From: an uncultured delta proteobacterium
Lineage (GTDB): Bacteria > Desulfobacterota > Binatia > Binatales > Binataceae
Direction: 5' to 3'
NCBI GenBank assembly: GCA_963794325.1
Contig: CAWCDG010000002.1
Span: forward strand, 192,001 to 256,000
DNA: 64,000 bases
The position numbers were made by a program, and so were the translations under genes. Below, piece after piece: positions 43,971-61,994 of the stretch. Each line of letters starts with the position of its first letter. The stretch's first letter is position 1. A model generated the notes under the pieces. It was given only the letters and a program-made list of their open reading frames with translations. It did not search any database and was not told the origin of the DNA.

Positions 43971-44055
43971 CGCACTGTTCTCCTCTTGGTCAATAGCTAT
44001 TGCTTAGATGTAGTTCCCGACCGCCTCGAGACGCAGATCGTCTTCGGCAGCAAGC

Positions 44056-44217
44056 TCACCCCATCATTCCGCCGCCCAGCACCAGCCAGACCACCAGGAC
44101 GATAAGAATGATGGTCAGCAGGCTCATTCCACCGCCGCCATAGTAACCGCTGCGATATCCGTAGTAGCCACCGCCGCCACCGAACAGCAGGATCAGCAGG
44201 ATAATCAAAAGCAACAT
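44056..44217 (-). CDS. Small Gly-rich membrane protein (DUF3309-like; not in ORF track)
   Basis: Manual translation MLLLIILLILLFGGGGGYYGYRSGYYGGGGMSLLTIILIVLVVWLVLGGGMMG; GGAGG RBS. Confidence 0.82.
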   Translation of the reverse strand: MLLLIILLILLFGGGGGYYGYRSGYYGGGGMSLLTIILIVLVVWLVLGGGMMG

Positions 44218-44285
44218 AGGACACCTCCCAAATCAGTTATTCTCTTTGCCAGATAGTCGTGTTCTTTCTTCCATGGAAAAGTAGC

Positions 44286-45152
44286 TCAGGCCCTCGCGGA
44301 CAAATTGCTCGCGCGACGAGATAATGGACTGGCGAATCGTCCATTTGCCGGCGCCTTTACCGAGCCAGCCTCTGCCATCGAACGTGTACGATAGAGTTGG
44401 CCGACGTTCGGAAACTGCAGTGGTGCACCAGCTCTGGCTAATGAGTCGCTCGCCTTGCGCAGTGGGACGTTGATCGAACTCTCGAGATTGTCCAGACGCA
44501 CAATCATTTGCCGCCCTTGGCGTAGCAGCAAATGTTCGCGCTCGAACTCTGCGATGTGCTCAGTGACTCTCGGCCGTGACGCACTCACCAGGCCCGCCAA
44601 ATCCTGGTGGCTGAGAAAGACTCGCAAGAGCGTACCGCGGGACTCTTTGACTCCAAAGATCGAACACAGTTGAAGAAACGTGAACAAAAGGCGTTCGCGG
44701 AGGTCGAGGCTTCCTCCGAAGAACCGATACCATTGTGTCAGATTGCTTTCGTGAAATTTTCTTAAATCAGATCTGGGTGCGTCTCTGGTGATTACGTCGA
44801 ATTGGTCCCAGCTCACGCTGCCGACCCTGCAATCGGTATGAGCCTCGCATCGAAAATGCCATCTGCTCACTGGGAGAGAAACAAAATGGGGGATTGGACC
44901 TGGCGCAAGTAACGCTGTGGGTACACGCTGGCCCGCCGGATTCAGGCAAGTGATCTTCGCCACGCCTCTCAGCAGGATATGGACACCTGCCGCGAGCTCT
45001 TTTTCAGGAAAGATGACTACGCGCCTTGTGAAGTTTGCCGAACTGAGCGACATCGCGAGTTCGTGCAATGCAACAGTTGAAAGAAACGAGAAGGACTTCA
45101 ACTGATTCAACAAATCAAAGTCCGTGGGAGCCGCGTTCTTCTGTCTGTCCAT
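44286..45152 (-). CDS. Crp/Fnr-family regulator
   Basis: ILLRGVAKI cNMP-like barrel; LSHQDLAGLVSASRPRVTE HTH. Confidence 0.88.
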   Translation of the reverse strand: MDRQKNAAPTDFDLLNQLKSFSFLSTVALHELAMSLSSANFTRRVVIFPEKELAAGVHILLRGVAKITCLNPAGQRVPTALLAPGPIPHFVSLPVSRWHFRCEAHTDCRVGSVSWDQFDVITRDAPRSDLRKFHESNLTQWYRFFGGSLDLRERLLFTFLQLCSIFGVKESRGTLLRVFLSHQDLAGLVSASRPRVTEHIAEFEREHLLLRQGRQMIVRLDNLESSINVPLRKASDSLARAGAPLQFPNVGQLYRTRSMAEAGSVKAPANGRFASPLSRRASNLSARA

Positions 45153-45255
45153 CGGCTTTCCTTTTCTGGCGACCAAAATACCTATCGAGAGTAAGGCAAG
45201 GACCATACCAATCGTCCGGGGCTGCAGGATTACTTTTTCGGGAAGTTCCGGGCGT

Positions 45256-45505
45256 TCGAATTGCAGACGATATCACCGAGCCGTTTTTTGCCCCATTAAA
45301 GTGTCTCCTTTGGAACCAACGCCGGGTTCTTTTGGATACAGATGATCAAATCCAAGAGAAGCTGGAATCTCTCTTGAATCGCAGACCGACGAGTTATCGC
45401 GCGAGATGGGTTGAGTGCTTAGGCCGGGGGCAGCCTGCGGTTCCGAGTGTTCGAATCACATCGCGATCTCCAACGAGCGCCTTCTACGTCCGTCGTCGAC
45501 CCGCA
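45256..45505. repeat. Duplicated non-coding segment, copy 2
   Basis: Homologous to 40136-40390. Confidence 0.9.
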
Positions 45506-45688
45506 GCGCCGGCGTCCAAGCGCGCAGCATTGATGCCAAAAGGCACAACCGTCCGTATCCGATCGGAACATCTGCGCGAGTTGCCTCTAATCTTGCGAGG
45601 GAAAACGGTATTGGATTTGGGAAGAAAGTGAGGCACAGAACATGCCTGTTCACATAGGAGTAAATCCTTGGAGGATGGAGGTTCTCAT

Positions 45689-46039
45689 ATGCACAAAGGT
45701 TTATCAGCAATCATCATGAGTTTAGCGTTCGCGGGTGCGCTGGTTGTAGCCGGATGCTCTGGGCAGCCGCTCACGACTCGTGAAAAAGGCACCATAGGAG
45801 GCACGGCATTGGGCGCAGGAGCTGGAGCAATCGTAGGTGCCGCCGTAGGTCATCCGCTCGCGGGCGCCGCGATTGGAGGTGTTATGGGCGGCGGCACTGG
45901 CTACGTAGTTGGGAATTCGATGCAGAACCAGGAAAACGCCAACGCGCAGACCCAGCAGCAGGTACAGTCTCAACAACAGGAAATCGAGAATCAGCGCCAG
46001 CAGATCCAGCAGCTCAAATCGCAGTCGGAAACCGAGTGA
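45689..46039 (+). CDS. Glycine-zipper lipoprotein
   Basis: VAGC lipobox, GTALGAGAGAIVGAAVG zipper, Gln-rich coil. Confidence 0.85.
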   Translation: MHKGLSAIIMSLAFAGALVVAGCSGQPLTTREKGTIGGTALGAGAGAIVGAAVGHPLAGAAIGGVMGGGTGYVVGNSMQNQENANAQTQQQVQSQQQEIENQRQQIQQLKSQSETE

Positions 46040-46060
46040 TCGGAATCCGGCAATCGAACA

Positions 46061-46093
46061 AAAGGGCGGCGCCATCCGGCGTCGTCCTTTCTT
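46061..46093 (+). terminator. Probable terminator
   Basis: AAAGGGCGGCGCC-ATCC-GGCGTCGTCCTTT hairpin. Confidence 0.7.
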
Positions 46094-46349
46094 CTCGCGG
46101 ACGGCTCGAATTTCGACTCAAATAGAGTGTTTGGTAAGAACGTGTTCTTCCTAGCACCAAAGGTTTAGACCAATACGCGTAATTGCTTTGACGGTACTCC
46201 CGCAACACATCATGCTTATCGCGTCGGGATCGAAACATTCTTCGAGACCGAGCTTGATCCAGCCGTAAAGTGGGCCACCCCAGGCCTTCGACCACGATGC
46301 GCTAGACCAACCCTACGCATCGACAGTAAAGGCCTCCGGGAGTACCAGA

Positions 46350-46757
46350 TTGAAATTCAAAGGTGTTACGTTATTGGCGATCGTGACTGCGGCTACTCTG
46401 ACCGTCCTACCTATGAAGCAGGCGTTCTGCCAGGACAGCGCCGCCGGTCAGGAGATGCACACGAGCGGACAGGATCTTAAGGGCGCCGCATCGGCGACCG
46501 GTGAATCCGTCGAGCATGCGTTTCACGGGGCGACTAATCAGATGAGCGATGCGACGCTCACGACCAAAGTCAAATCAACCCTGCTGAGCAACGAGCGCAC
46601 TCGCAAGTACTCGATTCACGTTGAATCGGATCACGGCAACGTTACGATCGACGGCGCAGTAGGCTCACGCTCGAAGGCAAAATATGTTGCTTCGGTTGTC
46701 GCTTCAGTAAGCGGTGTCCGCAGTGTCGAGAACAAACTAAGCTGGCCGAATTCGTAA
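46350..46757 (+). CDS. BON-domain (OsmY-like) protein
   Basis: Signal peptide; SDATLTTKVKSTLL..IHVES..VTIDG..VSGVRSVENKL. Confidence 0.9.
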   Translation: MKFKGVTLLAIVTAATLTVLPMKQAFCQDSAAGQEMHTSGQDLKGAASATGESVEHAFHGATNQMSDATLTTKVKSTLLSNERTRKYSIHVESDHGNVTIDGAVGSRSKAKYVASVVASVSGVRSVENKLSWPNS

Positions 46758-46873
46758 CTTCGTAAGAATGACCGATGTCGTCAGTCCTTGCGATCTCGGC
46801 GAGGCTGACGACGCCGGCCAACCGATCAACGGCTCGGGCGCGTCGCTGTGACGAGGTGGCTGACTAGCGACCT

Positions 46874-48088
46874 TCAAGCGTTCGAGCTGTTCGACGAACC
46901 GCGGAACAGGCGGGGACCGTATTGTGCCGCCATGCGAAACGGCCGAATCACCCAGTAGAGCGGGAAGAGGGCGGCCGGCAGCGGGATTAGTTCGTAGTCG
47001 CCCATCGTCGGCGCCAGCATCCGGCGGACAATATATCTCAATCGCGCGCGCCCACCCTCGATCGAGCGAAGAGGAACCTCCCACGGATCGAAGTCTGTCC
47101 GCCCCTGCGCGGCACCGCTGAACAGTCGGCTCGCGATGCGCGATGCCAATGCCTGGGCGGCGCGTTCGCGACGAGCTATCTCGACAACGTTCGCAGGAAT
47201 CGGCGCGTCAAGCAGGTCGTGCGCAAGGCAGATGCCAGTCAGGAACATCCTGCGGCTGCCGAGAGCGGTCGCCTCGTCGAGGGTGTCCATCAATGCGATG
47301 CCTGGCCGGGCGCGAATAGTCTCCGCAACATCGCAGATCACGCCAAGCGTGACCCATCCGTGCTTGGCGGCGTGAACGCATAGATACAGCAGCAGGTCCT
47401 CCGGCGCGATCGCGGTCACGGTGCCGAATTTCAGATCGACGGCACGCGCGCGCCGCCACAGCGCCTGCTCGTCGGGCGCGAAACGGAACGCGCGCGGCGT
47501 GATATTCCAATGAACGTCCACCGCACCCATCCCGCCCGCGGCAAAAAACGCGTCCTCGTATTCCTGGAAGTATCCGGTCGCGAGTCCCTCGCGCCTGGAA
47601 TGCGGCGACAGATACCCTTGCGCGCTGAGTATCTCTGCGATCCGGGGCAGATCCGTCTGACGCACCAGAAGATCCAGGTCGCTGAACTGGCGCAGCTCGA
47701 TCGATCCGTATGCCATCGCGGCCAGCACCGGACCTTTGAAGGTGACCGCGGGTATCCCGGCCGCTTCCAGCAATCCCATCAGCCGCACAAGTTCAGCCGT
47801 GAGATGACGGTTGTAGAGGATGATCAGCTGCCACTCCGTTCGGAGTCTCGCCATCGCTTCTTCCGGCACGGCGTCCGGACATTCGCCCTTCAGATATCGA
47901 TGGACCAGCGGGAGTACCGCATGGCGTTTTGCAATGTCGATGACGCGGTCCCAACTTTGGACGCGTGCCGCGGTTTCGGAGGCCAACGCCGTGCGTGCGG
48001 GCGTCGCCGCCGTCGTCGCGCAGTACAGCACAAGCGCCGCTTCAGTGGGCAAGTGGGAACGGTCGAGGAGAACGTCGTCGGATGCCAC
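46874..48088 (-). CDS. Nucleotidyltransferase (NTP_transf_5-like), lasso-cluster associated
   Basis: FKGPVLA..YG..LRQFSDLDLLV, VDVHW, LLYLCVHAAKHGW..CD. Confidence 0.88.
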   Translation of the reverse strand: MASDDVLLDRSHLPTEAALVLYCATTAATPARTALASETAARVQSWDRVIDIAKRHAVLPLVHRYLKGECPDAVPEEAMARLRTEWQLIILYNRHLTAELVRLMGLLEAAGIPAVTFKGPVLAAMAYGSIELRQFSDLDLLVRQTDLPRIAEILSAQGYLSPHSRREGLATGYFQEYEDAFFAAGGMGAVDVHWNITPRAFRFAPDEQALWRRARAVDLKFGTVTAIAPEDLLLYLCVHAAKHGWVTLGVICDVAETIRARPGIALMDTLDEATALGSRRMFLTGICLAHDLLDAPIPANVVEIARRERAAQALASRIASRLFSGAAQGRTDFDPWEVPLRSIEGGRARLRYIVRRMLAPTMGDYELIPLPAALFPLYWVIRPFRMAAQYGPRLFRGSSNSSNA

Positions 48089-48191
48089 GGAGTTATCAAC
48101 AATAGCTGGAAGCGATTGCGTCTCGAAAGTCCGCTCGATAACTTTCAGTGATTCTTATAGTCTTCGACGTGGGGCCGCCTTCATCCAGTAA

Positions 48192-48635
48192 ATGACCCGG
48201 ATTGGAAAATTTTTCGCGCTGGCGTCGTCTGATCGGAGGCTGCTCTTGAGGACGATCGCGCCTCTGGTCGCGATGCGTGCCGCGGTCTTGGCGCTGAACT
48301 TCGCGCGAGTGCGGCGCATTGCCGAAGCGATGAGCCGGCCGTTGCGCATCGATGCGGACGCGGCCCGTCCTTCACCGGACAGGATTGCGTGGGCGGCGGC
48401 GACGGCGAGCCGGGTCGTCCCGGGCGGGAGCAACTGCCTGGTCCGCGCGCTCGCAACCGGCATCGTGCTCAAGCGCTACGGCTATCCGAGCGAGCTGAAG
48501 ATCGGCGTCACCAAGCCCGCGAGTGGCCGCTTCGAAGCGCACGCGTGGCTCGAGAGCGACGGCAGCGTCGTGATTGGCGATTTCCAGCTCGATCGATACA
48601 CGGCCATGGCAGCGCCGGATACCGTCGCGCGATAG
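48192..48635 (+). CDS. Lasso peptide leader peptidase B2 (transglutaminase-like)
   Basis: NCLVRALA, LKIGV and EAHAWLE motifs. Confidence 0.93.
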   Translation: MTRIGKFFALASSDRRLLLRTIAPLVAMRAAVLALNFARVRRIAEAMSRPLRIDADAARPSPDRIAWAAATASRVVPGGSNCLVRALATGIVLKRYGYPSELKIGVTKPASGRFEAHAWLESDGSVVIGDFQLDRYTAMAAPDTVAR

Positions 48636-48660
48636 TATCACCCGACGCTTGCGCTCGCTT

Positions 48661-48945
48661 CCGATACCCTAACAAAGAGTAGGGATTTACGTCAGTAAGC
48701 CTAATTGGCGACTTCTAACGGTTAATAGCCGATAAAGAAACCATCAATACGGGCCATAAATCCGCTTGATGTATTAAGAATTTTCGAAAACAAGTACGTG
48801 CGGTCCTTCCTCGTTGTGTATTGCGAATTTAACAAATTGTAGGAATTTACGTCACTTAGCCTAAGTAACAACTTCTAACTGCCACCAAAGCAGTCAATGA
48901 GGGTTATAAATCCGTTTGACGTAAGGAAGGCAAAGTGGAATCATT
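48661..48945. promoter_or_regulatory. Tandem conserved upstream motifs and putative promoter of beta-helix gene 1
   Basis: Two TAACAAA..GTAGG.ATTTACGTCA..GCCTAA..ACTTCTAAC units (48670, 48830); TTGACG-17-AATCAT. Confidence 0.7.
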
Positions 48946-49080
48946 TCGCCTTCGCTCGCAAAACCATAGGTCAAATTTATCATGACGTGTCTAAACCCAA
49001 CGTCCAAGATCCAAGAGTCACGCAGACAATTGCTACTGATTCATCGCAATGGAAGACGAAATAAAAGCGAAGGAGAGCAT

Positions 49081-50022
49081 GTGAGTACAATCAAACGAGG
49101 CTTGCTTATGTTGGCCATTCTTGGCGGTCTGGGCTTGTCTGGACCGCAGGGTGCGTGGGCCAAGACGAAACTGCAGCAGGTCGATCCCATGACCATTGCT
49201 CCCTGCACGTCGAGTACCACGACGCTGAGTGGGAGCAACATTGTCTACACGCTGTCGACGAGTTTCTCGACGACCTTCACCGGCACTTGCATTAAAGTGA
49301 CGGGCAACAATGACCTCGTGATCATCGGTCCTTCGGTCACGATCTCCGGAGCCGGAGCCGGAATTGGCATCGACGTCGAGGGCAGCAACGATCTGATAAA
49401 CGGCCGTTCCAGCACAATAAGCGGGTTTGCGACGGGGCTCCTGGATCATGGGAGCAACAATTTGGGGGACAATCTGAATTTCTCCGGCAATGGAACCGGA
49501 CTGAAGCTGACGGGGACTACACTCAGATACATCAATTTGAATTCGAGTTCTAACACTGGGGTCGGCATTTGGCTCAGTGGATGCGGCGATGAGTGCGCCG
49601 TCTCGGATTTCTTCGTTGGGAGCAATGGCGGTGATGGACTGCTTATAAACGGCAGCAGCCCAGCCGCCGTTGCGAGCCTATTCATATCTCAAGACAACAC
49701 CGGTAACGGAGTCCACGTAGGCGGTCCCTCCGGCGATAACGTCGGTAACGTCTTTATAGATGATGCGGCCCTCGACTCGACACTAGCCGTCAACAACAAC
49801 GGCAAAGACGGAGTCTTTCTGGATGCGAGTGAAAACGGAGCAATAGACATGGTGACCGGGGTTATCTCTGACCTGAACGGGAGCGGCATCGATATGCACG
49901 ACGCAACCGCCAATTGCGGATCGAGCGGTCACTTCAATCTCTGGTCTTCACTCTCTTTCGGTACTTCGAAAGCGGGTGGTACGTCCAGTCCTGCCTGCAT
50001 TCCGAATCTGCCGGCCGAATAG
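49081..50022 (+). CDS. Secreted right-handed beta-helix repeat protein, paralog 1
   Basis: GTG start after GAAGGAG; signal peptide; N.G.G(I/V).(L/I) repeats; conserved Cys residues. Confidence 0.8.
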   Translation: MSTIKRGLLMLAILGGLGLSGPQGAWAKTKLQQVDPMTIAPCTSSTTTLSGSNIVYTLSTSFSTTFTGTCIKVTGNNDLVIIGPSVTISGAGAGIGIDVEGSNDLINGRSSTISGFATGLLDHGSNNLGDNLNFSGNGTGLKLTGTTLRYINLNSSSNTGVGIWLSGCGDECAVSDFFVGSNGGDGLLINGSSPAAVASLFISQDNTGNGVHVGGPSGDNVGNVFIDDAALDSTLAVNNNGKDGVFLDASENGAIDMVTGVISDLNGSGIDMHDATANCGSSGHFNLWSSLSFGTSKAGGTSSPACIPNLPAE

Positions 50023-50035
50023 GCTGGGGTTCATG

Positions 50036-50070
50036 ACTATGGCGGCGCCGGATAACCGTCCCGCCATAGT
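50036..50070 (+). terminator. Hairpin after paralog 1
   Basis: ACTATGGCGG...CCGCCATAGT. Confidence 0.6.
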
Positions 50071-50091
50071 TTCACCAACTGGTTGACTGCG

Positions 50092-50340
50092 TCCGATACT
50101 CGTAACAAAGAGTAGGGATTTACGTCAATCAGCCTGACTGACGGCTTCTAACAGCTAAGGGCCGATGAAGAAGCCAAGTACGTCAGTCCTTCCTCGTCGC
50201 GCGGTGCCGACCTAACAAATTGTAGAAATTTACGTCAATCAGCCTAATTTACGACTTCTAACGGCTAGAGGCCAATACCGGAGTGGTCAATGAGGGCTAT
50301 AAATCCGCTTGACGTAAAGAGGGCAAAGTGAAATGATTCG
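50092..50340. promoter_or_regulatory. Tandem conserved upstream motifs and putative promoter of beta-helix gene 2
   Basis: Units at 50103 and 50213; TTGACG-17-AATGAT. Confidence 0.7.
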
Positions 50341-50469
50341 CGCTGCTCGCAAAACCATAATCAAATCCGTCACTGCACGTCTTAAATCAACGTCCAAGAT
50401 CAAGAGTCACGAAGACAATTGTTACTGATGCACCGCAATTAATAACGAAATAAAAGCGAAGGAGAACAT

Positions 50470-51429
50470 ATGAGGACATTTAAACGAGGCTTGCTCATGT
50501 TGGCCATTCTTGCCGGGCTCGGCTTGACAGGATCGCAGGCGGCGTGGGCGAAGAAACACAACGACGGCGGCGGGCAGGTTGATCCCACAACCATTACCCC
50601 CTGTACATCGGCCACAACGACGCTCGCAACGAGCAATATTGTCTACACGCTGTCAACGGGTTTTTCGACGAGCTTCGTCGGCACGTGCATTAAAGTGACG
50701 GGCAACAATGATCTCATAATCATCGGTCCCCAAGCCACGATCACTGGCCCAGGTTCCGCGACCGCATCAATTGGCATCGACATTACGGGCACCAACGACA
50801 CGATCAACGGTCGTGCCAGCACAATAAGTTCGTTTGGAACCGCAGTGCTGGATGCCGGGACAGACACCTTGGGAGACAATCTCGACTTCACGGGTAATGG
50901 AGTCGGGCTCAAGATGACCGGGCACACAACCAAATGGGTCAACCTGAATTCGAGCAGTAACACCGGTAGTGGCGTTTGGTTCAATGGATGCCAAGATACC
51001 TGCGTCATCAACGATTTTTTCACTGGGAGCAATGGCGGTGATGGAATGCTCATAAACGGCCAAAGCCAGGGAACCGTTGCGAGCGTATTCATTTCTCAGG
51101 ATAACACCGGTTACGGAGTCCACGTAGGCCAAGCAACTGGCCAGGGCAATGGACCCACGATCATCGATGACGCGTCTCTCGACTCGACATTGGCGGTCAA
51201 CAATAACGGCAGCGACGGGGTTTTCCTGGACGTCAGTGAAGCCGGCGCTCTGGATGTGGTCACGGGCGTCGATGCAGAGAACAACAGCGGTATCGATATG
51301 CACGACGCGACAACCAATTGCGGATCGGGTGCCGGCCATTTTAATCTATGGTCGTCAAACTTTTTTGGTACTTCGAAAGCGGGTGCCACGACCAGTCCTG
51401 TTTGCATTCCGCTACTCCCGACCGAATAA
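50470..51429 (+). CDS. Secreted right-handed beta-helix repeat protein, paralog 2
   Basis: Colinear with paralogs 1 and 3 (VDP.TI.PCTS, CIKVTG.NDL, HDAT.NCGS, FGTSKAG...P.CIP). Confidence 0.8.
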   Translation: MRTFKRGLLMLAILAGLGLTGSQAAWAKKHNDGGGQVDPTTITPCTSATTTLATSNIVYTLSTGFSTSFVGTCIKVTGNNDLIIIGPQATITGPGSATASIGIDITGTNDTINGRASTISSFGTAVLDAGTDTLGDNLDFTGNGVGLKMTGHTTKWVNLNSSSNTGSGVWFNGCQDTCVINDFFTGSNGGDGMLINGQSQGTVASVFISQDNTGYGVHVGQATGQGNGPTIIDDASLDSTLAVNNNGSDGVFLDVSEAGALDVVTGVDAENNSGIDMHDATTNCGSGAGHFNLWSSNFFGTSKAGATTSPVCIPLLPTE

Positions 51430-51451
51430 ACTCTTCATCGTTTGTCGGCGA

Positions 51452-51482
51452 CCTCCGTCGGATCCACCGGATCCGACGGAGG
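51452..51482. terminator. Hairpin after paralog 2
   Basis: CCTCCGTCGGATCC-ACC-GGATCCGACGGAGG; the same hairpin follows paralog 3. Confidence 0.65.
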
Positions 51483-51539
51483 GCCGGCGAGAGTTCCCAC
51501 CCGCAAGATCCTTCGCTCCAGTCGATTTTGAGACACATA

Positions 51540-51665
51540 TAACAAATTGTATGAATTCTCGTCAATTTGCTTAAGGTACGACTTCTAATTACTAGAAGCC
51601 AACGCCAAAGCGGTCAAAGGGAGTCATAGCTCGCTTGACGCAAAGAAGACAATGTGAAATGATCG
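51540..51665. promoter_or_regulatory. Single conserved upstream motif and putative promoter of beta-helix gene 3
   Basis: TAACAAATTGTATGAATTCTCGTCAA..ACGACTTCTAA; TTGACG-17-AATGAT. Confidence 0.65.
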
Positions 51666-51729
51666 ATTTGGGTCTAAAACCGCACATAAATCTATCACAG
51701 CACGTCTTAAATCAGAGGAGAATAAGTAA

Positions 51730-52692
51730 GTGGCAGTAATCAAGCGCGGTTTGTTCATCCTGGCGATCCTGGTCGCCGTAGGCTTAACCGGCTCACAGGC
51801 TGCGTTAGCCAAGTCTCATGGGCCGGCCATGGTTGATCCGACGACCATTGCCCCCTGCACATCGGCTACCACAACACTCAGTGCAAGCAATACGGTCTAT
51901 ACGCTGACATCGAGTTTCTCGACGACCTTCACCGGCATCTGTATTAAAGTTACGGGCAGCAACGACCTCTTGATGCTCAGTTCCGACGTCACGATCACTG
52001 GTCCCGGAGCCGGGACTGGTATCGACATCGAGGGTAGCAATGACACGTTAAACGGCCGTGCCGGCACCGTGAGCGGGTTTGCGACGGGGATCCTGGATCA
52101 CGGCAAAGGCACTTTGGGAGAGGACGTCGATGTCACCGGGAATGTAACCGGTCTGGAGCTGACGGGGCGCACAGTCAGATGGGTGAATGTGGCTTCGTTT
52201 TCGAACACCGGCAACGGCATTTGGTTCAATGGATGTGCGGGCCAGGATTCGTCGCAAACTGCGGGATGCACCATTGCGGATTTTTTCACCGGCAGCAATG
52301 GCCTTGATGGACTGCTCATAAACAACGGCAGCGATGGCGCGAGTGCGGCCGTATTCATCTCCATGAATAACACCGGCAACGGAGTCCACCTGGGCGGTAC
52401 GGTTGGAGGTAGCGGTAATTCCGAGGTGGTGTTGGATGACGCGGCGGTCGAGTCGCCGACAATCGCTGACAACGGCCTGGACGGGATTTTTCTGGATACC
52501 AGTGAAAACGGCGCTGCAGACACGGTCACGGGGATTATTGCCGGCGGCAACACCGGTATCGATCTCCACGACGCGACCACCAACTGCGGCTCGAGCGGCA
52601 GCTTTAATCTTTGGTCCTCCCTCATATTTGGTACTTCGAAAGCTGGTGCAACGACCAGCCCCGTCTGCATTCCGCAAATCCCGAATTTGTAA
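51730..52692 (+). CDS. Secreted right-handed beta-helix repeat protein, paralog 3
   Basis: Same motifs as paralogs 1 and 2; GAGGAG RBS, GTG start. Confidence 0.8.
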   Translation: MAVIKRGLFILAILVAVGLTGSQAALAKSHGPAMVDPTTIAPCTSATTTLSASNTVYTLTSSFSTTFTGICIKVTGSNDLLMLSSDVTITGPGAGTGIDIEGSNDTLNGRAGTVSGFATGILDHGKGTLGEDVDVTGNVTGLELTGRTVRWVNVASFSNTGNGIWFNGCAGQDSSQTAGCTIADFFTGSNGLDGLLINNGSDGASAAVFISMNNTGNGVHLGGTVGGSGNSEVVLDDAAVESPTIADNGLDGIFLDTSENGAADTVTGIIAGGNTGIDLHDATTNCGSSGSFNLWSSLIFGTSKAGATTSPVCIPQIPNL

Positions 52693-52722
52693 GCTCGCTT
52701 CTTCCATCGTTTTGTCGACGAA

Positions 52723-52751
52723 CCTCCGTCGGATCCCGGATCCGACGGAGG
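52723..52751. terminator. Hairpin between convergent paralog 3 and kinase
   Basis: CCTCCGTCGGATCC-C-GGATCCGACGGAGG. Confidence 0.65.
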
Positions 52752-52791
52752 CCTCGCGAGCTTCTCACTAGCCACCGGCGAGGAGTCGGGA

Positions 52792-53775
52792 TCAGCGGCC
52801 GCGGTCGCTCAAGTCGCGCAGGACGGCCTGCTTTACGTCGGCGAGTGCGGCGAAGTCGTTGGGCATCACCAGCTGTTTGATCGGCACCTGCTCGGCAACG
52901 CTCGCCAGGAAATGGAACTGACGTTTCAGCATCGCCGTGTCGGTAATATCGAACCGGTAGGCCGCCTTGACCAATCCCATAAGAGCTTCTGCGGGGGCGA
53001 GCACTCGAATTGTGACGCGGGTCGACGGTCTGCTCGAGTTCGAGCGCTTGAGCAAATAGACGCGTGCGAGCCGCCGTGGCTTCGTGTAGAACTCGGTGGG
53101 GCGGGAATACGTTGACCAGCGCGACTTTCCCGTATAGTGGGCGACCGGCTTCAAATTCCGCGAGGTCGCCCCGACACCCCGAATCGAATCATCCCAAAGC
53201 CGCAAGCCCGGGTACCCGGGAAGCCCCACAATAGTCTTGCGTTCGGTAACCGCCAGACAATCGTCGCAGACCAGCGGGTAGCCCGACAGGACGAAGCTTG
53301 CCGCGAGAGTCGATTTGCCCGATCCTGCCGGCCCGGTGAACGCACAAATTCCTTTCGGGGTCGCAACGGCAGTGGCATGCAGCGCTTCCCCGCCGCGCAG
53401 GTTTACGATGAGTGGAAGCACCTGGTCGATCAGGAGATGACGGATGGTGCGAATAGTCGCGTCGCCACTGGCGTTGCAACAGACTATCCGGCTTCCAACC
53501 CGGTCAACGACGAAGTCGGCAAGATTCGGGAAGGAAAGGACGTAACCATCCGGGATTTTGCCGTAACGAAGCCAGGGCTTGCCTCGTGGTTGCCGCGATT
53601 GCAGATACCATCGAGGAGTAAGGTGAGCGCGCTCGAAGCGCCGGGCAAGACTCACACGGACTGCGTTCCGGTGCGACGACGGCTTCAGCGTCGCGAGCTC
53701 GGGAATCGACATGTCCGCGACGATCTGTAGGCCGTAGGCCCGGTTATCGAAGGTTCGGATCCTCGTTTTGCTCAA
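52792..53775 (-). CDS. HPr-kinase-like P-loop kinase (lasso-associated)
   Basis: LHATAV, GPAGSGKSTLAA, LVCDD, PGLRLW; N-terminal YGL. Confidence 0.88.
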   Translation of the reverse strand: MSKTRIRTFDNRAYGLQIVADMSIPELATLKPSSHRNAVRVSLARRFERAHLTPRWYLQSRQPRGKPWLRYGKIPDGYVLSFPNLADFVVDRVGSRIVCCNASGDATIRTIRHLLIDQVLPLIVNLRGGEALHATAVATPKGICAFTGPAGSGKSTLAASFVLSGYPLVCDDCLAVTERKTIVGLPGYPGLRLWDDSIRGVGATSRNLKPVAHYTGKSRWSTYSRPTEFYTKPRRLARVYLLKRSNSSRPSTRVTIRVLAPAEALMGLVKAAYRFDITDTAMLKRQFHFLASVAEQVPIKQLVMPNDFAALADVKQAVLRDLSDRGR

Positions 53776-54019
53776 AGTCAGCTACGGGGGCGCGCCGAGC
53801 GGAGCATCCCACGTGGAGGCTCGCCCGGCGCGATACCGTTGAAGCCGGACCCGAACTCTACCATTCCGAGAGTCGCCGGGTTCACTACATTTTGAACTAA
53901 TTGCCTACAACATTGAATGACGCGAAGACGAGCGAAGTTCGTTACACATCCTGGAACTCCCCACCAGCCGGAAGTTGAGTTCGCACCCAACCCGGCCCGC
54001 CGCCCCTCGAACTTCTAAT

Positions 54020-54190
54020 CTACAGGCAAATCGACGACATCATTGTATTGGTGCCGTCAGGCGAATTTACGGTTCCACCCGAGGCGGTGAGCTTCGCGAC
54101 GCTTCCGTATTCGACCAAGCGAGGACGAATATACTGTCGCTTTGCTCGCTCTTCCTTCTTTTTCGCCGGTTGTGGTGTGCTTTTGGTCAT
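54020..54190 (-). CDS. Lasso peptide precursor, 56 aa (not in ORF track)
   Basis: Manual translation MTKSTPQPAKKKEERAKRQYIRPRLVEYGSVAKLTA-SGGTVNSPDGTNTMMSSICL; YxxPxLxxxG....LTx leader motif; GGAGAGG RBS; Asp at core position 9. Confidence 0.92.
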   Translation of the reverse strand: MTKSTPQPAKKKEERAKRQYIRPRLVEYGSVAKLTASGGTVNSPDGTNTMMSSICL

Positions 54191-54267
54191 TTACCTCTCC
54201 CTAAATCCAGTGCCGTTAAAGATAGCAAGACCCACAATTACTGTCAAGAAAGTGCCGGGATGACTCA

Positions 54268-55470
54268 TTAACGTGTTTCTTTTTTGAAACGCGCCGGAAC
54301 CTCAAGCGAAGGTTTGGCGGTATGTGTCCCCTCGAGGCCGTAGGGAATCAGAACTTCGGTCGCATACTCGGAGGCCTTGGCCAGCGACGGAAAGAGGTCG
54401 CCATGAACCCGGAACAGTTCCTTTTCTATTTCTGCAACCGTGCGCTTTCCATCGATCAGGTTGACCGTTGTCCGCCTGGCCTCGCCCCAAACCGAAAGCT
54501 GCGGGACAAAATCGGGCCGCGTCTTCGCCAAATCCTCGGGCGCCAGCAACATCCCTTTGAGCGTCGAATGAATGAAGCGCGCCTTCTGTTCACCCCTGGA
54601 ATTGCGGATGGTCACCGTCCAGCTGAGCATCGTCTGCGCCGCGATGATGCCCATCTTGATCTTCACGCGGTCGCCCTTCCGCAGATCGACCGGCTTTTCA
54701 ATTGGCAGGAATGCAGCGCGCCGGGTGATCCGTCCTTTGCTGAAGGGCGAGTTGGTCATGTTGATGCCGGGCGCGAGCTCGGCAACGAACCATCCGCTGA
54801 GGCCGTGCATAACGCCAGCCGCGGAAACTTCGATCTCAGCTTCGGCATGAACGTGTTCCGGCGTCAGTTCGGTAAGATCGAAGGTGACCATCCGCGCCGG
54901 CTTGCCCAGCATTCGACGCGGGCTATTCTCGGCGGGGTATCCGGTGTTGAATGCGATGACGTGCGCGGGCGCCATATTCAGCCCGGCAGGCTTTTTGTCC
55001 CAGAAACTCACGGCGTCCCACATTTCGGGAAAATTCACCGGCGTAACGAACAGCTCGATGCGTCGAGGGATGGTCCGGCCGCCGGGCTTGAGGAAACGCT
55101 GGCGCGCGTCGTTGAAGATCTCGGGCATCCCTCCGCCAATTCCGAAATGGCTCAGCTGGTCTGCGATAACGACGTCGACCTTCTCGGGCAGCGTGGCGCG
55201 ACTGGAGACTTGGCGAATCCCTGTCGCGGTTTGCCCGCAACCATTGGCTCGGGCCACGTCGCGGGCTATTTGGATCATGCCGGTCAGGTCAACCTGGTAG
55301 AGTCGTGCGGCTCCCGCTTTCATCGCCAGCATGCCAAGCACGCCGGTCCCGCAGGCGAGGTCGAGAACGACGTCACCCGGCTTGACCACTGCGTTGATTG
55401 CCCGGCGAAACAATGAAGTCCTGGTCCGGTCGGTAAGGTACAGGCGGTGCTCATCTAGCATCAATGACAT
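54268..55470 (-). CDS. SAM-dependent methyltransferase with PRMT-like fold
   Basis: HRLYLTDRTRT..AI, VVLDLACGTGVL, LPEKVDVVI, FLKPGG..IP, HGLSGWF. Confidence 0.85.
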   Translation of the reverse strand: MSLMLDEHRLYLTDRTRTSLFRRAINAVVKPGDVVLDLACGTGVLGMLAMKAGAARLYQVDLTGMIQIARDVARANGCGQTATGIRQVSSRATLPEKVDVVIADQLSHFGIGGGMPEIFNDARQRFLKPGGRTIPRRIELFVTPVNFPEMWDAVSFWDKKPAGLNMAPAHVIAFNTGYPAENSPRRMLGKPARMVTFDLTELTPEHVHAEAEIEVSAAGVMHGLSGWFVAELAPGINMTNSPFSKGRITRRAAFLPIEKPVDLRKGDRVKIKMGIIAAQTMLSWTVTIRNSRGEQKARFIHSTLKGMLLAPEDLAKTRPDFVPQLSVWGEARRTTVNLIDGKRTVAEIEKELFRVHGDLFPSLAKASEYATEVLIPYGLEGTHTAKPSLEVPARFKKETR

Positions 55471-55539
55471 TGGGTGCGTTCCATCTCGTTCAATTCAAAA
55501 TAGGCAGGTTCAAATGTGGGCGGCTGGCGAGTGACAGAC

Positions 55540-57489
55540 TCACAGCGCCGCTCCGCTGGCCGCGGTCACTTGATCGAACGGCTCGCTGATACCCAGGAAC
55601 ACGACATTGAGCCACAGTTCAATCGCAAGGACCATCCATAGAAAGAATACATTCTCCGCGTAGGAGGGATCGCCGCGCGAATACGCGGCAGCCATCGAGT
55701 GGTATAGCTTCCGAACCGCTTCCCCGTCCACCCATCCGTTTTTGACACTGCTCAGGCGATCGAACAGCCGCTCTCCACCAAGCGCGATTAGCGCGTTGGC
55801 GTAAAGCTCGGTGGGGTCGGCCTTGTCAGGCCGCATCCGCAACCGTTCTGGCAGGATTCCGCGCATCGCTTCGCGCAGTACGATCTTGGTGAAGTTGCCC
55901 CGGCATCGTTGGCTGTAGGGGATCGCGAACGCAAACTCCATCACGCGGCGGTCCAGGAACGGATGGCGGCCCTCAACTCGGAAACCTGCTTCCCAGCGTC
56001 CGATCATCTCGAGAGCGTAAGCGAGAGATCCGGAAGAGTAAACGCCGTAGACATCTCGCTGTGCGAAACTGCGGCATCGCGGCAACGATGGCCGCGTGGA
56101 CAGCCGCTCCGACAGCCTCGTCCGGGCGGCAAACTCGCGCGAGACCACCGCGTTGGGCTCCGCGGGATTCCTCCACTGCCTGAGCACGGACTTCAGGCTG
56201 TCCGGAACCAACGGCAAGACTCCATACGGCAGCAGAGTTTTGACGTAGCCCGGAAAGGGCCCGAACCCAATTGGAGGATTCCGATGAATCCGCAACGTCT
56301 CCAACAGCGCCGGAATCCGCAACTGTTTGATCAGATCGGCATAGACGAAGTAGGTCCCCGACAGCCACTCGTCGCCACCCAGTCCGGTCATCCGAACTCT
56401 CAAGTCGTCGCGCTTGCCCAGCAGCGGCGTGTAGTCGGCGCACGCCGTGTTGGGATAGTCAGGCAGGTCCATGTAGTGCGCAACTTGCCGCATGAGTTCG
56501 GTGAGTGGAGCCATTCCGGGCGAGAGATAGGTATGGCGATGAGGGTACTTATGCAGGACCTCATCGACGTACTCATCTTCGGCGGCGGGTCCGGGCGCGA
56601 AGCGGACCGAGAAGCTTTCGAAGTTGTCGACTTGCACCTCTCGGTTGCGGCGCAAGGTCTCGGTCATACAGACAATTGATGAGGAATCAAGTCCGCCGCT
56701 AAGGTCCGACGCCACTCCTTTGACGCTCCGCAGCCGGCACCGCGTAGCTTCCTTGAAGAGCGAGAGAAAATGTTCGCCGTACTGCTCATCGGTGGAATAG
56801 GAAATTTCGCGCGAGGGATCGAGATCGTAGTAGCGCCGGCATTCCACGCCGCGCGCGCTGACGCGCAGGTAATGCGACGGCTCGAGGCGGCGAATGCCTT
56901 CAAAGAGGGTCTCAACCCGGGAGACGGGCGCTCTTACCAGGATGTCGGCGATCGCAGGCTCGTTCGGCCTTCGCGGTACTCGCGGGTCCTGAAATAGTTG
57001 ATGAACCTCCGATGCGCAAAGAAAAAAACCCGAACCTTGGTAGTAATAGAGACTCTTTACTCCCAGTGGGTCGCGGGCACAGTACAGTGTTCGCGTCGTC
57101 TCGTCCCACAAAGCGAACGCGAAATCGCCGATCACTTTCGCCGGCGCATCCGTGCCCCAACACTGCCAACTGCGAAGCATGATCTCCGCATCGGTCCCGG
57201 TATGCACGCGATGACCATGCGCCGTCAGCTCCTTGATGAGGTCGTCGCGGTTGTCCAACCGCCCGTCCATCGAGAGCACCAGCCCCGCGTTGTCGTCCAC
57301 GAAAGGGCTGGTTTCCGCTGAAGCTTCAACTGTCGTGCAGAGTCTTGCGTGGCCCATCGCGACGGGACCACGATGCCAGACGCCAAGGCCGTCAATCCCT
57401 CGATAAGGGACGACCGCGAGCATCCGTTCTACCGTCGATCGTTCAGCCGGGGAGCCCTCGGTATGAAAGAGCGCCGCGATGCCGCTCAC
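55540..57489 (-). CDS. Lasso cyclase (asparagine-synthetase-like, full length)
   Basis: N-terminal SGIA (no Cys nucleophile), DGRLDNR, GDFAFALWD, ARDPLG, LSGGLDSSSI, TGLGGDE, HPFLDRR. Confidence 0.9.
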   Translation of the reverse strand: MSGIAALFHTEGSPAERSTVERMLAVVPYRGIDGLGVWHRGPVAMGHARLCTTVEASAETSPFVDDNAGLVLSMDGRLDNRDDLIKELTAHGHRVHTGTDAEIMLRSWQCWGTDAPAKVIGDFAFALWDETTRTLYCARDPLGVKSLYYYQGSGFFLCASEVHQLFQDPRVPRRPNEPAIADILVRAPVSRVETLFEGIRRLEPSHYLRVSARGVECRRYYDLDPSREISYSTDEQYGEHFLSLFKEATRCRLRSVKGVASDLSGGLDSSSIVCMTETLRRNREVQVDNFESFSVRFAPGPAAEDEYVDEVLHKYPHRHTYLSPGMAPLTELMRQVAHYMDLPDYPNTACADYTPLLGKRDDLRVRMTGLGGDEWLSGTYFVYADLIKQLRIPALLETLRIHRNPPIGFGPFPGYVKTLLPYGVLPLVPDSLKSVLRQWRNPAEPNAVVSREFAARTRLSERLSTRPSLPRCRSFAQRDVYGVYSSGSLAYALEMIGRWEAGFRVEGRHPFLDRRVMEFAFAIPYSQRCRGNFTKIVLREAMRGILPERLRMRPDKADPTELYANALIALGGERLFDRLSSVKNGWVDGEAVRKLYHSMAAAYSRGDPSYAENVFFLWMVLAIELWLNVVFLGISEPFDQVTAASGAAL

Positions 57490-57517
57490 CAGCCGGCGCG
57501 CTCCTTGGCGCAAAGCA

Positions 57518-57805
57518 TCATCGCGAGCGAGGCTTGGATTCCCGGTTCAGTCGCACGAGTCCTTTGTCGGCCAGTTGCTGCAGAAGATCCTCGAGGTCGC
57601 GTCGGAGTTGATCCGGCTCAACGTCGAACTGCTTCTTGAGGGACTCGAGAGCCTTTTCGAGCGAGGGCTGTTCGACGAGTTGATGCCACATCTGCTCACC
57701 GGCCCCGTCCAATCCAAAATATACACCGGTGGCGAGGTTCAGGATGACGACCTCGTCGCTGAGGTCGCGCCAAATTACGTCGTCACAGATTTCAACCCGC
57801 GTCAC
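57518..57805 (-). CDS. PqqD-like RiPP recognition element (lasso B1)
   Basis: DEVVILNLATGVYFGLDGAGEQMW..DLEDLLQQLADKGLV. Confidence 0.93.
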   Translation of the reverse strand: MTRVEICDDVIWRDLSDEVVILNLATGVYFGLDGAGEQMWHQLVEQPSLEKALESLKKQFDVEPDQLRRDLEDLLQQLADKGLVRLNRESKPRSR

Positions 57806-57926
57806 AAAACTCCTCCGGGAGAGAGCCGAGTCACACTACCGTCAAGCTGGAGATGGAGTCAAATCTTGATCGGAAACAGACGCCTCAGGCGCGCTAGAGG
57901 TTCCGGATTGCGAAATAGGGTTCGCG

Positions 57927-58418
57927 TTATTCCGTCATCGCCGATTCAGTAAACGACAGGTTGGTCGGAAAGGTTATTCCCAGCAAAGTGTTAGAAGGTA
58001 GAAAGATCCTGCTGGATGCATCGTAGGTGATCGCGACACTGAACTGGCAACCGAATGTGCGTGGCGGGCCGCAGTTCGCGGTGTTTGCGGCAGTCAGGGT
58101 GACGGTGGCGCCGCTGATCGTTGGCGACATCTGGTTCGAGATCGCAGTCTTGAGCGTTGCGCTGGTAAGGGCAGCATTGATTTGAGCGGTGCGCGCCCCG
58201 AGATAAGACGCCTGACTGACGGCGAGCGCTGCCTGGCCGATTAGGGCGAACTGGACTCCGACCAACATTATAACCAGGACCAGAGGTACGATCAGCGCGA
58301 GTTCCACCGCCGACTGACCACGTTTGAAACGGCGTCTCCGTCCGCCGCTGCCATCATCACGTGCCCAGGCTCTCGCGCCTGACAGAGACGCTCTGATGCT
58401 AGCGTATGACACCATCAT
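57927..58418 (-). CDS. TadE-family pseudopilin
   Basis: RGQSAVELALIVPL prepilin motif, ASYLGAR. Confidence 0.88.
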   Translation of the reverse strand: MMVSYASIRASLSGARAWARDDGSGGRRRRFKRGQSAVELALIVPLVLVIMLVGVQFALIGQAALAVSQASYLGARTAQINAALTSATLKTAISNQMSPTISGATVTLTAANTANCGPPRTFGCQFSVAITYDASSRIFLPSNTLLGITFPTNLSFTESAMTE

Positions 58419-58484
58419 ATCCCTCGGATTAATGAATAGCCGATTCATCTGCTCCGCCGAACCAAGAGCCACTGCTTGAATTCA

Positions 58485-59462
58485 CTACTGGATTAAAACC
58501 GGTTTCGTGGTACCAGTTACCGGCCCATTCGCATCTGCGATGTCGGCGGAAATGTTGGTCGAGACCACTTCGGCGTAAAATTGGCCCGGTGCGCCGGGCT
58601 CAGGGACGATCAGCGCCGTGATAAATCCAGTGATATCGACGGTCTTCTTGCCATTCGGAAGCGAAGCAACCATCGGGATAACGATCACTCGAGGATCGTT
58701 GGGATCGGTTAGAACGCTGGGATCGCTTGCATTCGGCACTTCAGTCCCGAGGTTGTAACGATCTTGTACACCTGGCCCGCCGTGAACGTTCACGTCATTG
58801 CCAGTGACTGTATCGACATCGGTAGTGCCAACCAAAATTGGCGTAGTTCCGCCGTAGCCATTTTCAATTGCCGCCTCATAGTGACTGCCTGTATATCCCT
58901 GGGTGGGATCTTGGGCACTGAAATCCAAGCCTCCCCAATTGCCCGGTGTTTGCTTAATGGCGTCCCCAGGAAGACCGAAAGTCTGGCCGGGCGCTGCGTT
59001 CGCACACGGCGGGGCTGCGCACACAAAGCCGAACGGGACTAGATGAGTCCCACCTGCGCCGACAATCGGTTGTATCTGCGCCTTGGCGGTTACTTGAACT
59101 GGAGCACTGCCTAGTCCTAATGCCTGTCCGAAAAGATACGGCACCGTCCGTTGAACCGTAAGCGAGATAGTCTGGTGGCCGACGACCGTTGGTCCACTAA
59201 TAATCTCGCCCGCCTGAATTCCGTTCGAGGTCGCGTAGGTGGTCGCCGTCGCGATGGCATTGTTGTCGCCGGTCGAGTCCGTGCCATTGAGCATGCCGGC
59301 TCCAGACAGCACCGCCTGATCAGCGGCCTTCTGGATTCCCTGCCAGTTCATGTACATTACGGCGACGTCGCTCCCGAGCGCTACCGCGCCCAGAAGCACC
59401 GCAAGGATCCCAGCGTACAGAACGATTACCTGCCCGCGTGGCTTACCAAGTATCTTCATCAT
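58485..59462 (-). CDS. TadG-like Flp pilus protein
   Basis: RGQVIVL..ALGSDVA..IQKAADQAVLSGA; PGNWGGLD. Confidence 0.85.
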   Translation of the reverse strand: MMKILGKPRGQVIVLYAGILAVLLGAVALGSDVAVMYMNWQGIQKAADQAVLSGAGMLNGTDSTGDNNAIATATTYATSNGIQAGEIISGPTVVGHQTISLTVQRTVPYLFGQALGLGSAPVQVTAKAQIQPIVGAGGTHLVPFGFVCAAPPCANAAPGQTFGLPGDAIKQTPGNWGGLDFSAQDPTQGYTGSHYEAAIENGYGGTTPILVGTTDVDTVTGNDVNVHGGPGVQDRYNLGTEVPNASDPSVLTDPNDPRVIVIPMVASLPNGKKTVDITGFITALIVPEPGAPGQFYAEVVSTNISADIADANGPVTGTTKPVLIQ

Positions 59463-59639
59463 TTGTATCGACCTCTCGGATCCGGTCATCGAACCCACGA
59501 CGAGCGGATTCTGCTAAAAACCCCTTTGTTCCTCCTTTTCGTATCACCTGTCCTACTTTATGGCAAGTATGCAACAGGTGGTCGGTTGAAGGAGAGCGCG
59601 TGATGCGAAAACACGCTTAAATCCATCGTGTCGACCGTT

Positions 59640-59668
59640 AATCTAACAAGACTCAAGATTTACGTCAA
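59640..59668 (-). promoter_or_regulatory. Sigma70-type promoter facing the TadG-like gene
   Basis: Minus strand TTGACG-17 nt-TAGATT with an extended TG. Confidence 0.6.
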
Positions 59669-59842
59669 GAATCAATCGTAGCAGGTATGCTACTTTGAGT
59701 AGTAGAAGATGCCAAGCTTGTAGGATACCGGGAGGCTGGTCGAAGTAGTCAGTCTAATACTGAAGTCCGAATGCCCGCAAAGGGGCGGACCCAGGCCCGC
59801 CCCTCGCGCGCTTCTGCTTCTGAACCCGCTCGCGGCCGGCTG

Positions 59843-61992: not shown

Positions 61993-61994
61993 CT

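Follow-up and report, generated by a model that had tools for sequence, protein, structure and literature searches.

Introduction

Several described lasso peptide systems resemble, each in part, the gene cluster analysed here, which lies at positions 46,874 to 57,805 of a 64,000-nucleotide stretch (hereafter the window) of contig CAWCDG010000002.1, from an uncultured delta proteobacterium of the Binataceae type (assembly GCA_963794325.1). In the paeninodin type (the pade, thco and syan clusters), as here, the B protein is split into B1 and B2, the cyclase is asparagine-synthetase-like and the precursor is the substrate of an HprK-like kinase (PadeK, ThcoK or SyanK) (PMC9266682). Kinases of the paeninodin type need a conserved C-terminal Ser, whereas the core peptide here ends in ...ICL and a C-terminal Ser is present in one of 116 related precursors; since no conserved C-terminal Ser is found in this group, the rule cannot apply to it. 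Moreover, no methyltransferase is reported for the paeninodin type, and an ABC exporter was found in none of the scanned open reading frames (ORFs) of the window. The pseudomycoidin cluster (psm) of Bacillus pseudomycoides combines a kinase, PsmK, with an annotated nucleotidyltransferase (NTase), PsmN, as does our locus, the likeness to PsmN being one of annotation (PMC9266682); psm differs in its C-terminal Ser chemistry, in having neither a methyltransferase nor a beta-helix gene, and in its Firmicute host. The bsf cluster of Bradymonas sediminis FA350 encodes a kinase that acts on Ser3 of the ring, aided by B1, and also carries an NTase gene (PMC10368454). As in the bsf type, the core here has Ser/Thr residues in its ring and no C-terminal Ser; bsf differs in having Ile at position −2 (Thr here) and an ABC exporter, and in having no methyltransferase.

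Methylation of lasso peptides dependent on S-adenosylmethionine (SAM) is known for LasF and StspM, which are C-terminal O-methyltransferases, and for enzymes of the protein isoaspartyl methyltransferase (PIMT) type, as in cellulonodin-2 and lihuanodin (PMC9266682). These belong to families other than that of the methyltransferase encoded here (hereafter MT), and they act on the C-terminal carboxylate or on Asp6. The part of the same review that deals with lasso methyltransferases names solely lassomycin-type O-methyltransferases and PIMT homologues (PMC9266682). In longipeptin A, the product of the lop cluster of Longimycelium tulufanense, Met13 at the plug position of the tail is an S-methyl sulfonium, which is the chemistry that we propose below; the enzyme held responsible, LopH, resembles the SAM-binding domain of methylenetetrahydrofolate reductase and not a protein arginine methyltransferase (PRMT), and lop encodes P450s and no kinase (PMC10664482). 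With the eukaryotic type I PRMTs (PRMT1, PRMT2, PRMT3, PRMT6 and CARM1) the MT shares a Rossmann domain and the PRMT beta-barrel; it differs from them in altered double-E and THW loops, in extra C-terminal helices and in that the core peptide is free of Arg. Lastly, the secreted proteins encoded within the cluster have the right-handed parallel beta-helix fold of NosD and pectate-lyase-like proteins, and differ from NosD in scoring below the Pfam cut-off, in that no NosF or NosY was found beside the cluster, and in forming a small, lineage-bound, Cys-rich family.

Results

Gene content of the cluster

We conclude, with a probability of about 0.78, that the locus is a real, intact lasso peptide cluster of an uncultured Binataceae-type soil bacterium, belonging to a large, uncharacterised subfamily whose clusters combine a kinase, an NTase of family PF14907 and a PRMT-fold MT. 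A sequence-only reading of the window had named ten genes here; every one of these ORFs is in place and family searches (Pfam, NCBIfam) identify each, and the claim of a lasso cluster with these three tailoring enzymes is borne out by family, profile and fold matches. A row of five genes on the minus strand, in the order B1, cyclase, MT, precursor, kinase, encodes a PqqD-type leader-recognition protein (B1; 57518–57805; PF05402, E 7.6e-16), an asparagine-synthetase-like lasso cyclase (55540–57513; PF00733, E 1.9e-40; NF033535, a cyanobacterial cyclase model, 437 bits against a cut-off of 525), the SAM-dependent MT (54268–55470; profile and fold matches to PRMTs), a 56-residue precursor (54020–54190; lasso leader model NF033521, 22 bits against a cut-off of 19) and an HprK-like peptide kinase (52792–53775; TIGR04352, E 6e-9, 35 bits against a cut-off of 200, and the catalytic motif). 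On the plus strand lie B2, a transglutaminase-like leader peptidase (48192–48635; NF033537, 98 bits against a cut-off of 33), and three genes for secreted right-handed beta-helix proteins, bh1 to bh3 (see below). The NTase gene (46874–48088, minus strand; PF14907, E 1.6e-58, full length), of the family to which the tailoring gene PsmN also belongs, is transcribed divergently from B2, with 103 bases between them. Residues C82, H117 and D123 of B2 (read by eye) form what we take to be the usual Cys-His-Asp triad. At the level of sequence the split-B lasso gene set, comprising a leader-bearing precursor, B1, B2 and a cyclase, is complete here, and a threaded macrolactam product is predicted. Neither a lasso-type ABC exporter nor a member of the isopeptidase family is encoded among the 56 ORFs of the window that were scanned, as the sequence-only reading had also held; the sole ABC genes among these ORFs code for a ZnuABC-type importer (25421–27710).

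The genome assembly comprises 4.45 Mb in 10 contigs and is 85% complete, and its sole cyclase and sole B2 are both in this locus. Contigs from four DNA runs of one soil study form a tiling of the stretch that breaks at 51456/51473, in the gap separating bh2 from bh3; one 3741-base soil contig covers the 5′ end of the NTase gene, B2, bh1 and bh2, and the run that yielded it may be the source sample. A contig from one of the soil runs, X1, joins 48019 to 53660 through 11 other letters, and could be a relative or variant from which B2 and the beta-helix array are missing, along with most of the kinase gene, or an assembly chimera. The G+C content is 0.52–0.55 across 48000–52000 (B2 and the beta-helix array) versus about 0.60 on both sides. 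Rfam gave nothing at gathering score across 44000–60000, and no RNA sequencing run is listed as containing the stretch.

Precursor, ring and leader

In the precursor, the leader (...YIRPRLVEYGSVAKLTA) precedes the core SGGTVNSPDGTNTMMSSICL. The leader shows the YxxPxL...T(−2) pattern, with Thr at −2, and contains several Arg; the core has Ser1 and Asp9 and no Arg, Lys or His. Orthologues of the precursor are found at 9/9 genome loci, and Ser1 is invariant among the nine aligned orthologues as well as in the beta-helix clade (see below). As in established lasso systems, B1 would bind the YxxPxL leader and B2 would cleave after Thr(−2)-Ala(−1); the cyclase would join Ser1, through its amine, to the Asp9 side chain, giving a nine-residue ring and an 11-residue tail. 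The ring contains Ser1, Thr4 and Ser7, and those of related precursors always hold Ser or Thr; position 4 in the beta-helix clade is Ser/Thr in 19 of the 22 precursors, the remaining three having Gly. The sequence-only reading had remarked that the core ends in SSICL and not in Ser. The ending is confirmed, but it is not odd for the group, in which a C-terminal Ser occurs in 1/80 MT-bearing and 0/36 MT-free precursors. A promoter-like site (54219–54247, minus strand; TTGACA-17-TATCTT, TG-extended; a pattern match only) lies just upstream of the precursor gene, and between this site and the ATG a pattern match places the ribosome site GGGAGAGG.

Spread of the subfamily and layout in relatives

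Databases contain more than 1000 relatives of the MT, and those that are named come from Candidatus Binataceae, Acidiferrales and Acidobacteria assemblies. When metagenomes were searched with an MT alignment as bait, a relative was encoded in 495 of the 600 candidates, and the best 80 were kept; tblastn places the MT among lasso genes in 77 of these 80 best loci, the other three being contigs of at most 2 kb. Distant metagenome loci (45–50% identity) have the usual order B1-B2-C-precursor-MT-kinase (C for cyclase), often followed by the NTase, and nine metagenome loci repeat a layout of B1-C-MT-precursor plus a convergent beta-helix gene. A scan of reference genomes yielded nine MT loci, all from Binataceae-type or 'delta proteobacterium' assemblies; B1-C-MT-precursor is followed by a convergent beta-helix gene in 9/9, a kinase is present in 8/9, and an NTase, 80% identical to that of the window, comes next in 3/9. 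Among 151 genomes of the order, 40 have the MT (at E 1e-60 or lower) and 92 have the kinase; these counts, and that of the beta-helix gene given below, take in four genomes flagged as unpublished (G118, G107, G071 and G033), and no claim rests solely on them. The suggested neighbourhood analysis of cyclase and MT, now run, shows both that the lasso context recurs and that the combination is widespread. The idea of an undescribed subclass stands to this extent: in the open literature searched we found no paper joining lasso peptides with a PRMT-type enzyme and no characterised product of this type, nor is a product or enzyme activity described there for the kinase/NTase/PRMT-fold-MT subfamily. 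The combination is, however, common and not rare (77/80 loci; 40/151 genomes).

The position of B2 sets the window apart. None of the nine reference loci has a B2 beside the MT cluster, the sole B2 match lying in an upstream second lasso cluster of locus L010; five relatives have exactly one B2 each, elsewhere in the genome and beside a second B1 in 4/5, and in two cases the distant B2 is accompanied by a further NTase, or by a kinase and an NTase. On this comparison of gene order B2 is a movable part, and B2 plus NTase is a second module that here adjoins the cluster; since the system is spread over two loci in relatives, the window is unusual in having B2 and the NTase adjoining. In L010 (213–12552) two lasso clusters are arranged in tandem, the first consisting of B2-C-precursor-kinase-NTase, with the core GTTGSHTDKGSHAGIHGQG, and the second of B1-C-MT-precursor-beta-helix; as the second has no kinase of its own, parts may be shared between the two.

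Two other layouts were seen among sister loci. In the MT-free sisters L101 (12144–13865, plus strand) and L102, precursor and cyclase are separated by a 573-residue hydrophobic ORF on the opposite strand, which by eye resembles a polytopic membrane protein. L097 (4800–8400) is a decaying sister, in which an MT remnant persists at 7568–8026, the precursor reads on to 110 residues and the kinase is in two pieces; it also carries an inserted ORF, FAD-oxidoreductase-like by eye.

A PRMT fold with a remodelled arginine pocket

The double-E and THW loops are the defining motifs of the PRMT family. A profile of the MT matches PRMT2, PRMT6, PRMT1, PRMT3 and CARM1 in the PDB (E 1e-40 to 1e-34, positions 8–278), and an AlphaFold2 model (predicted local distance difference test score, pLDDT, 87), which has a Rossmann SAM domain and a PRMT beta-barrel, gives target-normalised template modelling scores of 0.72–0.84 in Foldseek. 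In the double-E loop, the first Glu is replaced by an invariant Asp104, and the position of the second aligns with Gly, a nearly invariant Glu117 following four residues on. In place of the THW loop there is I-x-R-R, in which R250 is invariant, as is R332 elsewhere in the protein. Relative to type I PRMTs, the arginine pocket of the MT is, by its sequence, remodelled. A prediction of the complex of MT, precursor and SAM scored 0.05 (the mark being 0.32), which speaks neither for nor against any substrate.

The MT also has an added C-terminal three-helix domain (residues ~327–378), whose helices look PqqD-like by eye. The idea that it is a fused, leader-binding RiPP recognition element (RiPP, a peptide made by the ribosome and modified after translation) was dropped, since hhalign against an alignment of the local B1 gave a probability of 0.6%, Pfam gave no match at E up to 10, and no ESM Atlas score reached 0.9, a PKMT winged-helix family, at 0.78, being a lead.

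The MT goes with sulfur-containing tails

We compared 116 distinct precursors adjoining a cyclase or kinase, 80 from clusters with the MT and 36 from clusters without it. Met is present in the tail of 72/80 MT-bearing versus 5/36 MT-free precursors, Cys in 54/80 versus 0/36, and either of the two in 78/80 versus 5/36; a C-terminal C[LI] is likewise found in 54/80 versus 0/36, and tail Lys in 24% versus 83%. Within the one order, the count for tail Met/Cys is 20/22 with the MT versus 5/36 without.

In the beta-helix clade, MT-free precursors have R/K at +5/+6 or +8/+9 past the ring Asp, and MT-bearing ones have Met at +5/+6, or at +9 in the group with a D8 ring. The window (tail GTNTMMSSICL) and L003 (GSNAMMSSTCL), both MT-bearing, are nested among MT-free clusters with the tails GAALRKPGP (GAALRK in L100), GSSIRKPGP and GAALKKPG, so that Met-Met and Arg/Lys-Lys share positions +5/+6 after Asp9. 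In a second case, the MT-free L098 (..FLIRKVTP) is nested among the MT-bearing L009, L025 and L027 (..QIMIG, ..QIMIR and ..QIMV).

Kinase and nucleotidyltransferase

The catalytic residues of the kinase, H133, G148, K154, S155, D171 and D172, have a spacing identical to that of H148, G163, K169, S170, D186 and D187 of BsfK, and it is by this spacing that we liken the two enzymes. At 35 bits against 200, the kinase is not an equivalog of TIGR04352. BsfK phosphorylates Ser3 of the ring, which is a proven target (PMC10368454). By analogy, the kinase here would phosphorylate a Ser or Thr of the ring (Thr4, Ser7 or Ser1), a proposal to which we give an even chance.

PsmN is described as adding hexoses to phospho-Ser (review PMC9266682). 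Following what is proposed for PsmN, the NTase might then decorate the phosphate added by the kinase, although for the ring phosphate of this peptide we regard that step as rather doubtful. NTase orthologues that are 71–82% identical adjoin related clusters. At L113, L119 and L138 the NTase orthologues are 71–79% identical, yet the adjacent cyclases are only 36–37% and the kinases 39–43% identical; such conservation beside diverged cassettes fits an enzyme that sees phosphate rather than peptide.

Secreted beta-helix proteins and a shared upstream element

The genes bh1 (49081–50022; longest ORF from 48982), bh2 (50470–51429) and bh3 (51730–52692), all on the plus strand, encode proteins that are mutually 62–71% identical, and 36–54% identical to their orthologues; that the copies are closer to each other than to orthologues points to a tandem triplication within the lineage. 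The likeliest start of bh1 is the GTG at 49081, a position that corresponds in the alignment to where the other copies start, with the same GAAGGAGA site ahead. Each protein has a signal peptide ending in A-x-A (read by eye), and the family has six invariant Cys. In an AlphaFold2 model of bh2 (24-sequence alignment, pLDDT 87.5), a right-handed beta-helix follows the signal peptide. VIA-align relates the model to many beta-helix lyases, epimerases, hydrolases and tailspikes at Z 28–20, including an alginate epimerase/lyase (Z 28.3) and NosD (Z 24.4), and Foldseek does likewise, with none standing out. The nearest clusters in the ESM Atlas carry the NosD and Beta_helix families (score 0.95). Pfam NosD gives 17.4 bits on bh1, below the gathering score of 23.6, and does not match bh2 or bh3; no NosF or NosY partner was found among the ORFs beside the cluster (39287–64000).

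A word-based search among 5.8 billion proteins found 24 clusters of this family. Strong full-length matches (E 3e-70 or lower) are present in 20 of the 151 genomes of the order, and only the genome studied here has more than one strong copy, with three, all in this locus. In all eight genomes with a strong bh match and no MT match, L097 among them, B1-C-precursor-kinase is followed by bh and this by the NTase, without an intact MT. In a FastTree phylogeny of cyclases (90 rows), the clusters with a bh gene group together in a single clade (support 100), whose 18 rows comprise 12 that have the MT and six that lack it. The description of the cluster as split by the beta-helix genes was therefore mistaken, as the clade regularly has a bh gene placed between those for the kinase and the NTase (18/18 tree rows). 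Judged from these sequences, that position is a fixed feature of one Binataceae cyclase clade and the triplication is a local novelty.

A 25-nucleotide near-palindrome, TAACAAATTGTAG[AG]GATTTACGTC[AG], is present in five copies upstream of the three bh genes, two of them upstream of bh1 (48670–48694 and 48830–48854) and the others at 50103–50127, 50213–50237 and 51540–51564, all on the plus strand. The triplicated unit takes in about 350–450 bases upstream of the genes, with a promoter-like TTGACG-17-AATGAT and the 25-nucleotide element; before bh1 the promoter-like site reads TTGACG-17-AATCAT (48916–48944). Taken as counts, neither the promoter-like sites of a scan (five, 4.4 expected) nor its terminator-like sites (five, 12 expected) exceeded chance, and the promoter-like sites used here are those conserved among the three repeat units, plus that of the precursor. 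At 17 further bh loci (loci fetched twice included) the element recurs upstream of bh, in the short divergent spacer that bh and the NTase gene have in common, and it is also found in two lasso loci without a bh gene, L119 and L124. At L119 it lies between the NTase orthologue and small secreted ORFs. These ORFs (8245–9457, minus strand; 91 and 182 residues) stand in the place of the bh gene, and the signal peptide of the shorter one (..FKRGLFILAVLV..) resembles that of the bh proteins. To judge by its sequence and position, the element looks like the operator of a regulator, and since it is shared in their divergent spacer across loci, the NTase and the secreted protein are probably a conserved, co-regulated module.

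Neighbouring genes

The cluster is flanked by TadE-like and Tad_C-like pseudopilin genes (57927–62323, minus strand), and TadE-like ORFs also adjoin the clusters of L003 and L005. Elsewhere in the window, a 2901-residue ORF (30374–39079, minus strand), in which a glucoamylase-like domain is combined with the supersandwich and catalytic domains of GH94, resembles cyclic beta-1,2-glucan synthases; two DUF455 paralogues lie side by side at 7128–8761 (minus strand).

Discussion

What the MT does to the peptide is judged here from the company it keeps. We tentatively favour S-methylation of the tail, at Met14/Met15 to give a sulfonium and/or at Cys19, at somewhat less than even odds, because the MT goes with Met/Cys tails and longipeptin A offers a precedent. 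The expectation raised by the profile and fold matches to PRMT1/2/3/6 and CARM1 is a different one, namely that the MT is a true peptide arginine N-methyltransferase and the product an arginine-methylated lasso peptide; it could also appeal to the retained acidic pair (D104, invariant, and E117, nearly so), to the Arg found in 29/80 MT-bearing cores and to the several Arg of the leader. It is nevertheless very improbable, given that the core of the window has no Arg, Lys or His, that 51/80 MT-bearing cores have no Arg, that the second catalytic Glu aligns with Gly and that THW has become I-x-R-R; for the core itself, as predicted, the lack of Arg means that arginine methylation is excluded in this cluster. 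A C-terminal methyl ester, formed by lassomycin-type chemistry on recognition of the conserved Cys-Leu end, would leave both the near-universal tail Met and the retained acidic pair without explanation, and 26/80 MT-bearing precursors have other endings. StspM, which methylates its lasso precursor C-terminally and thereby provides a parallel, was modelled by its authors on mitomycin 7-O-methyltransferase and not on a PRMT (PMC9266682). In its favour the ester has the distribution of the C[LI] end (54/80 versus 0/36), the presence of a carboxylate in all precursors, which covers MT-bearing tails without Cys, and the invariant R250 and R332, which could hold that carboxylate; we consider it unlikely, if by no means negligible.

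For the beta-helix proteins, our tentative reading, again at a little under even odds, is that they are an extracytoplasmic partner of the system, in binding, immunity or processing. They might instead be ordinary neighbours, such as a secreted polysaccharide lyase or epimerase, that are inherited along with the cluster and play no role in the synthesis or export of the peptide or in resistance to it: the closest solved folds are alginate epimerases/lyases, pectate lyase and phage depolymerases, the genes run counter to the biosynthetic operon, a single lineage contains the whole family (24 database clusters; 20/151 genomes), and bh is absent from most MT-bearing lasso clusters. A mere neighbour would sit less easily with a place between kinase and NTase that is kept across the clade despite drift to 35–54% identity, with retention of bh with or without the MT, with the short divergent spacer and conserved 25-nucleotide element that bh and the NTase share in relatives, or with the finding that the three copies of this genome are all in this locus; we rate it as appreciably below even, though it deserves serious weight. 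That the whole cluster is decaying or silent, and no peptide is made, is quite improbable: its ten frames are all open and full length, the catalytic motifs of the kinase are intact, the precursor has all the invariant leader residues, and the required B2 and cyclase are present in the genome, one each. This can be said even though no exporter was found in the window and the relative L097 is plainly decaying, its MT being a remnant, its kinase split and its precursor running past the stop.

Several observations weigh against the picture preferred here. No exporter is present among the 56 ORFs scanned in the window, and the cyclase and kinase fall short of their curated models (NF033535, 437 versus 525 bits; TIGR04352, 35 versus 200). 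The link between the MT and sulfur is a correlation among relatives; most MT-bearing precursors come from an MT-baited scan over many phyla, and the MT-free ones are all from one order. On well-supported branches there are four independent pairs differing in presence of the MT, of which ~3.2 agree with the link and 0.1 are opposite, so that the test is underpowered and the sign-test p is at best 0.125. There are exceptions in both directions, L155 and L156 having the MT and no tail Met/Cys, and five MT-free tails having Met. K or R is also present in 16/22 MT-bearing tails of the order, and the notion that Met replaces Arg/Lys is for this reason limited to the beta-helix clade. As to the secreted proteins, their fold does not pick out one function, dozens of unrelated enzymes being matched at Z 28–20, and 18/30 genomes with a strong MT match (E ~1e-136 or lower) have no strong bh gene. 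The parts can be joined in a single proposal, in which a PRMT-fold S-methyltransferase would make a cationic tail-Met sulfonium that takes over, at matching tail positions, the role of the Arg/Lys in sisters that have lost the MT, and the NosD-like beta-helix proteins would be a dedicated extracellular partner (as receptor, or in immunity or processing); as a package we hold this to be unlikely, at roughly one chance in a handful.

Stable and bioactive, lasso peptides have been mined heavily, and the decorations known for them are few. The cluster described here stands for a very large environmental subfamily, with more than 1000 MT relatives in several phyla; within the order alone, 40 of 151 genomes have the MT. 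What is peculiar to the window itself is that the B2/NTase module adjoins the cluster and that the beta-helix gene is triplicated. Of most use is a testable link between a PRMT-fold enzyme and Met/Cys-rich tails, together with the removal, for this core, of the obvious expectation of an arginine-methylated peptide. If the link is true, a PRMT fold would have acquired a new use, the methylation of sulfur in a ribosomal peptide, and the natural swap of Met plus MT against Arg/Lys would reveal the purpose of the modification. The lineage-bound secreted beta-helix partner and the shared element form a second, independent lead, and may show how clusters without an exporter function outside the cell.

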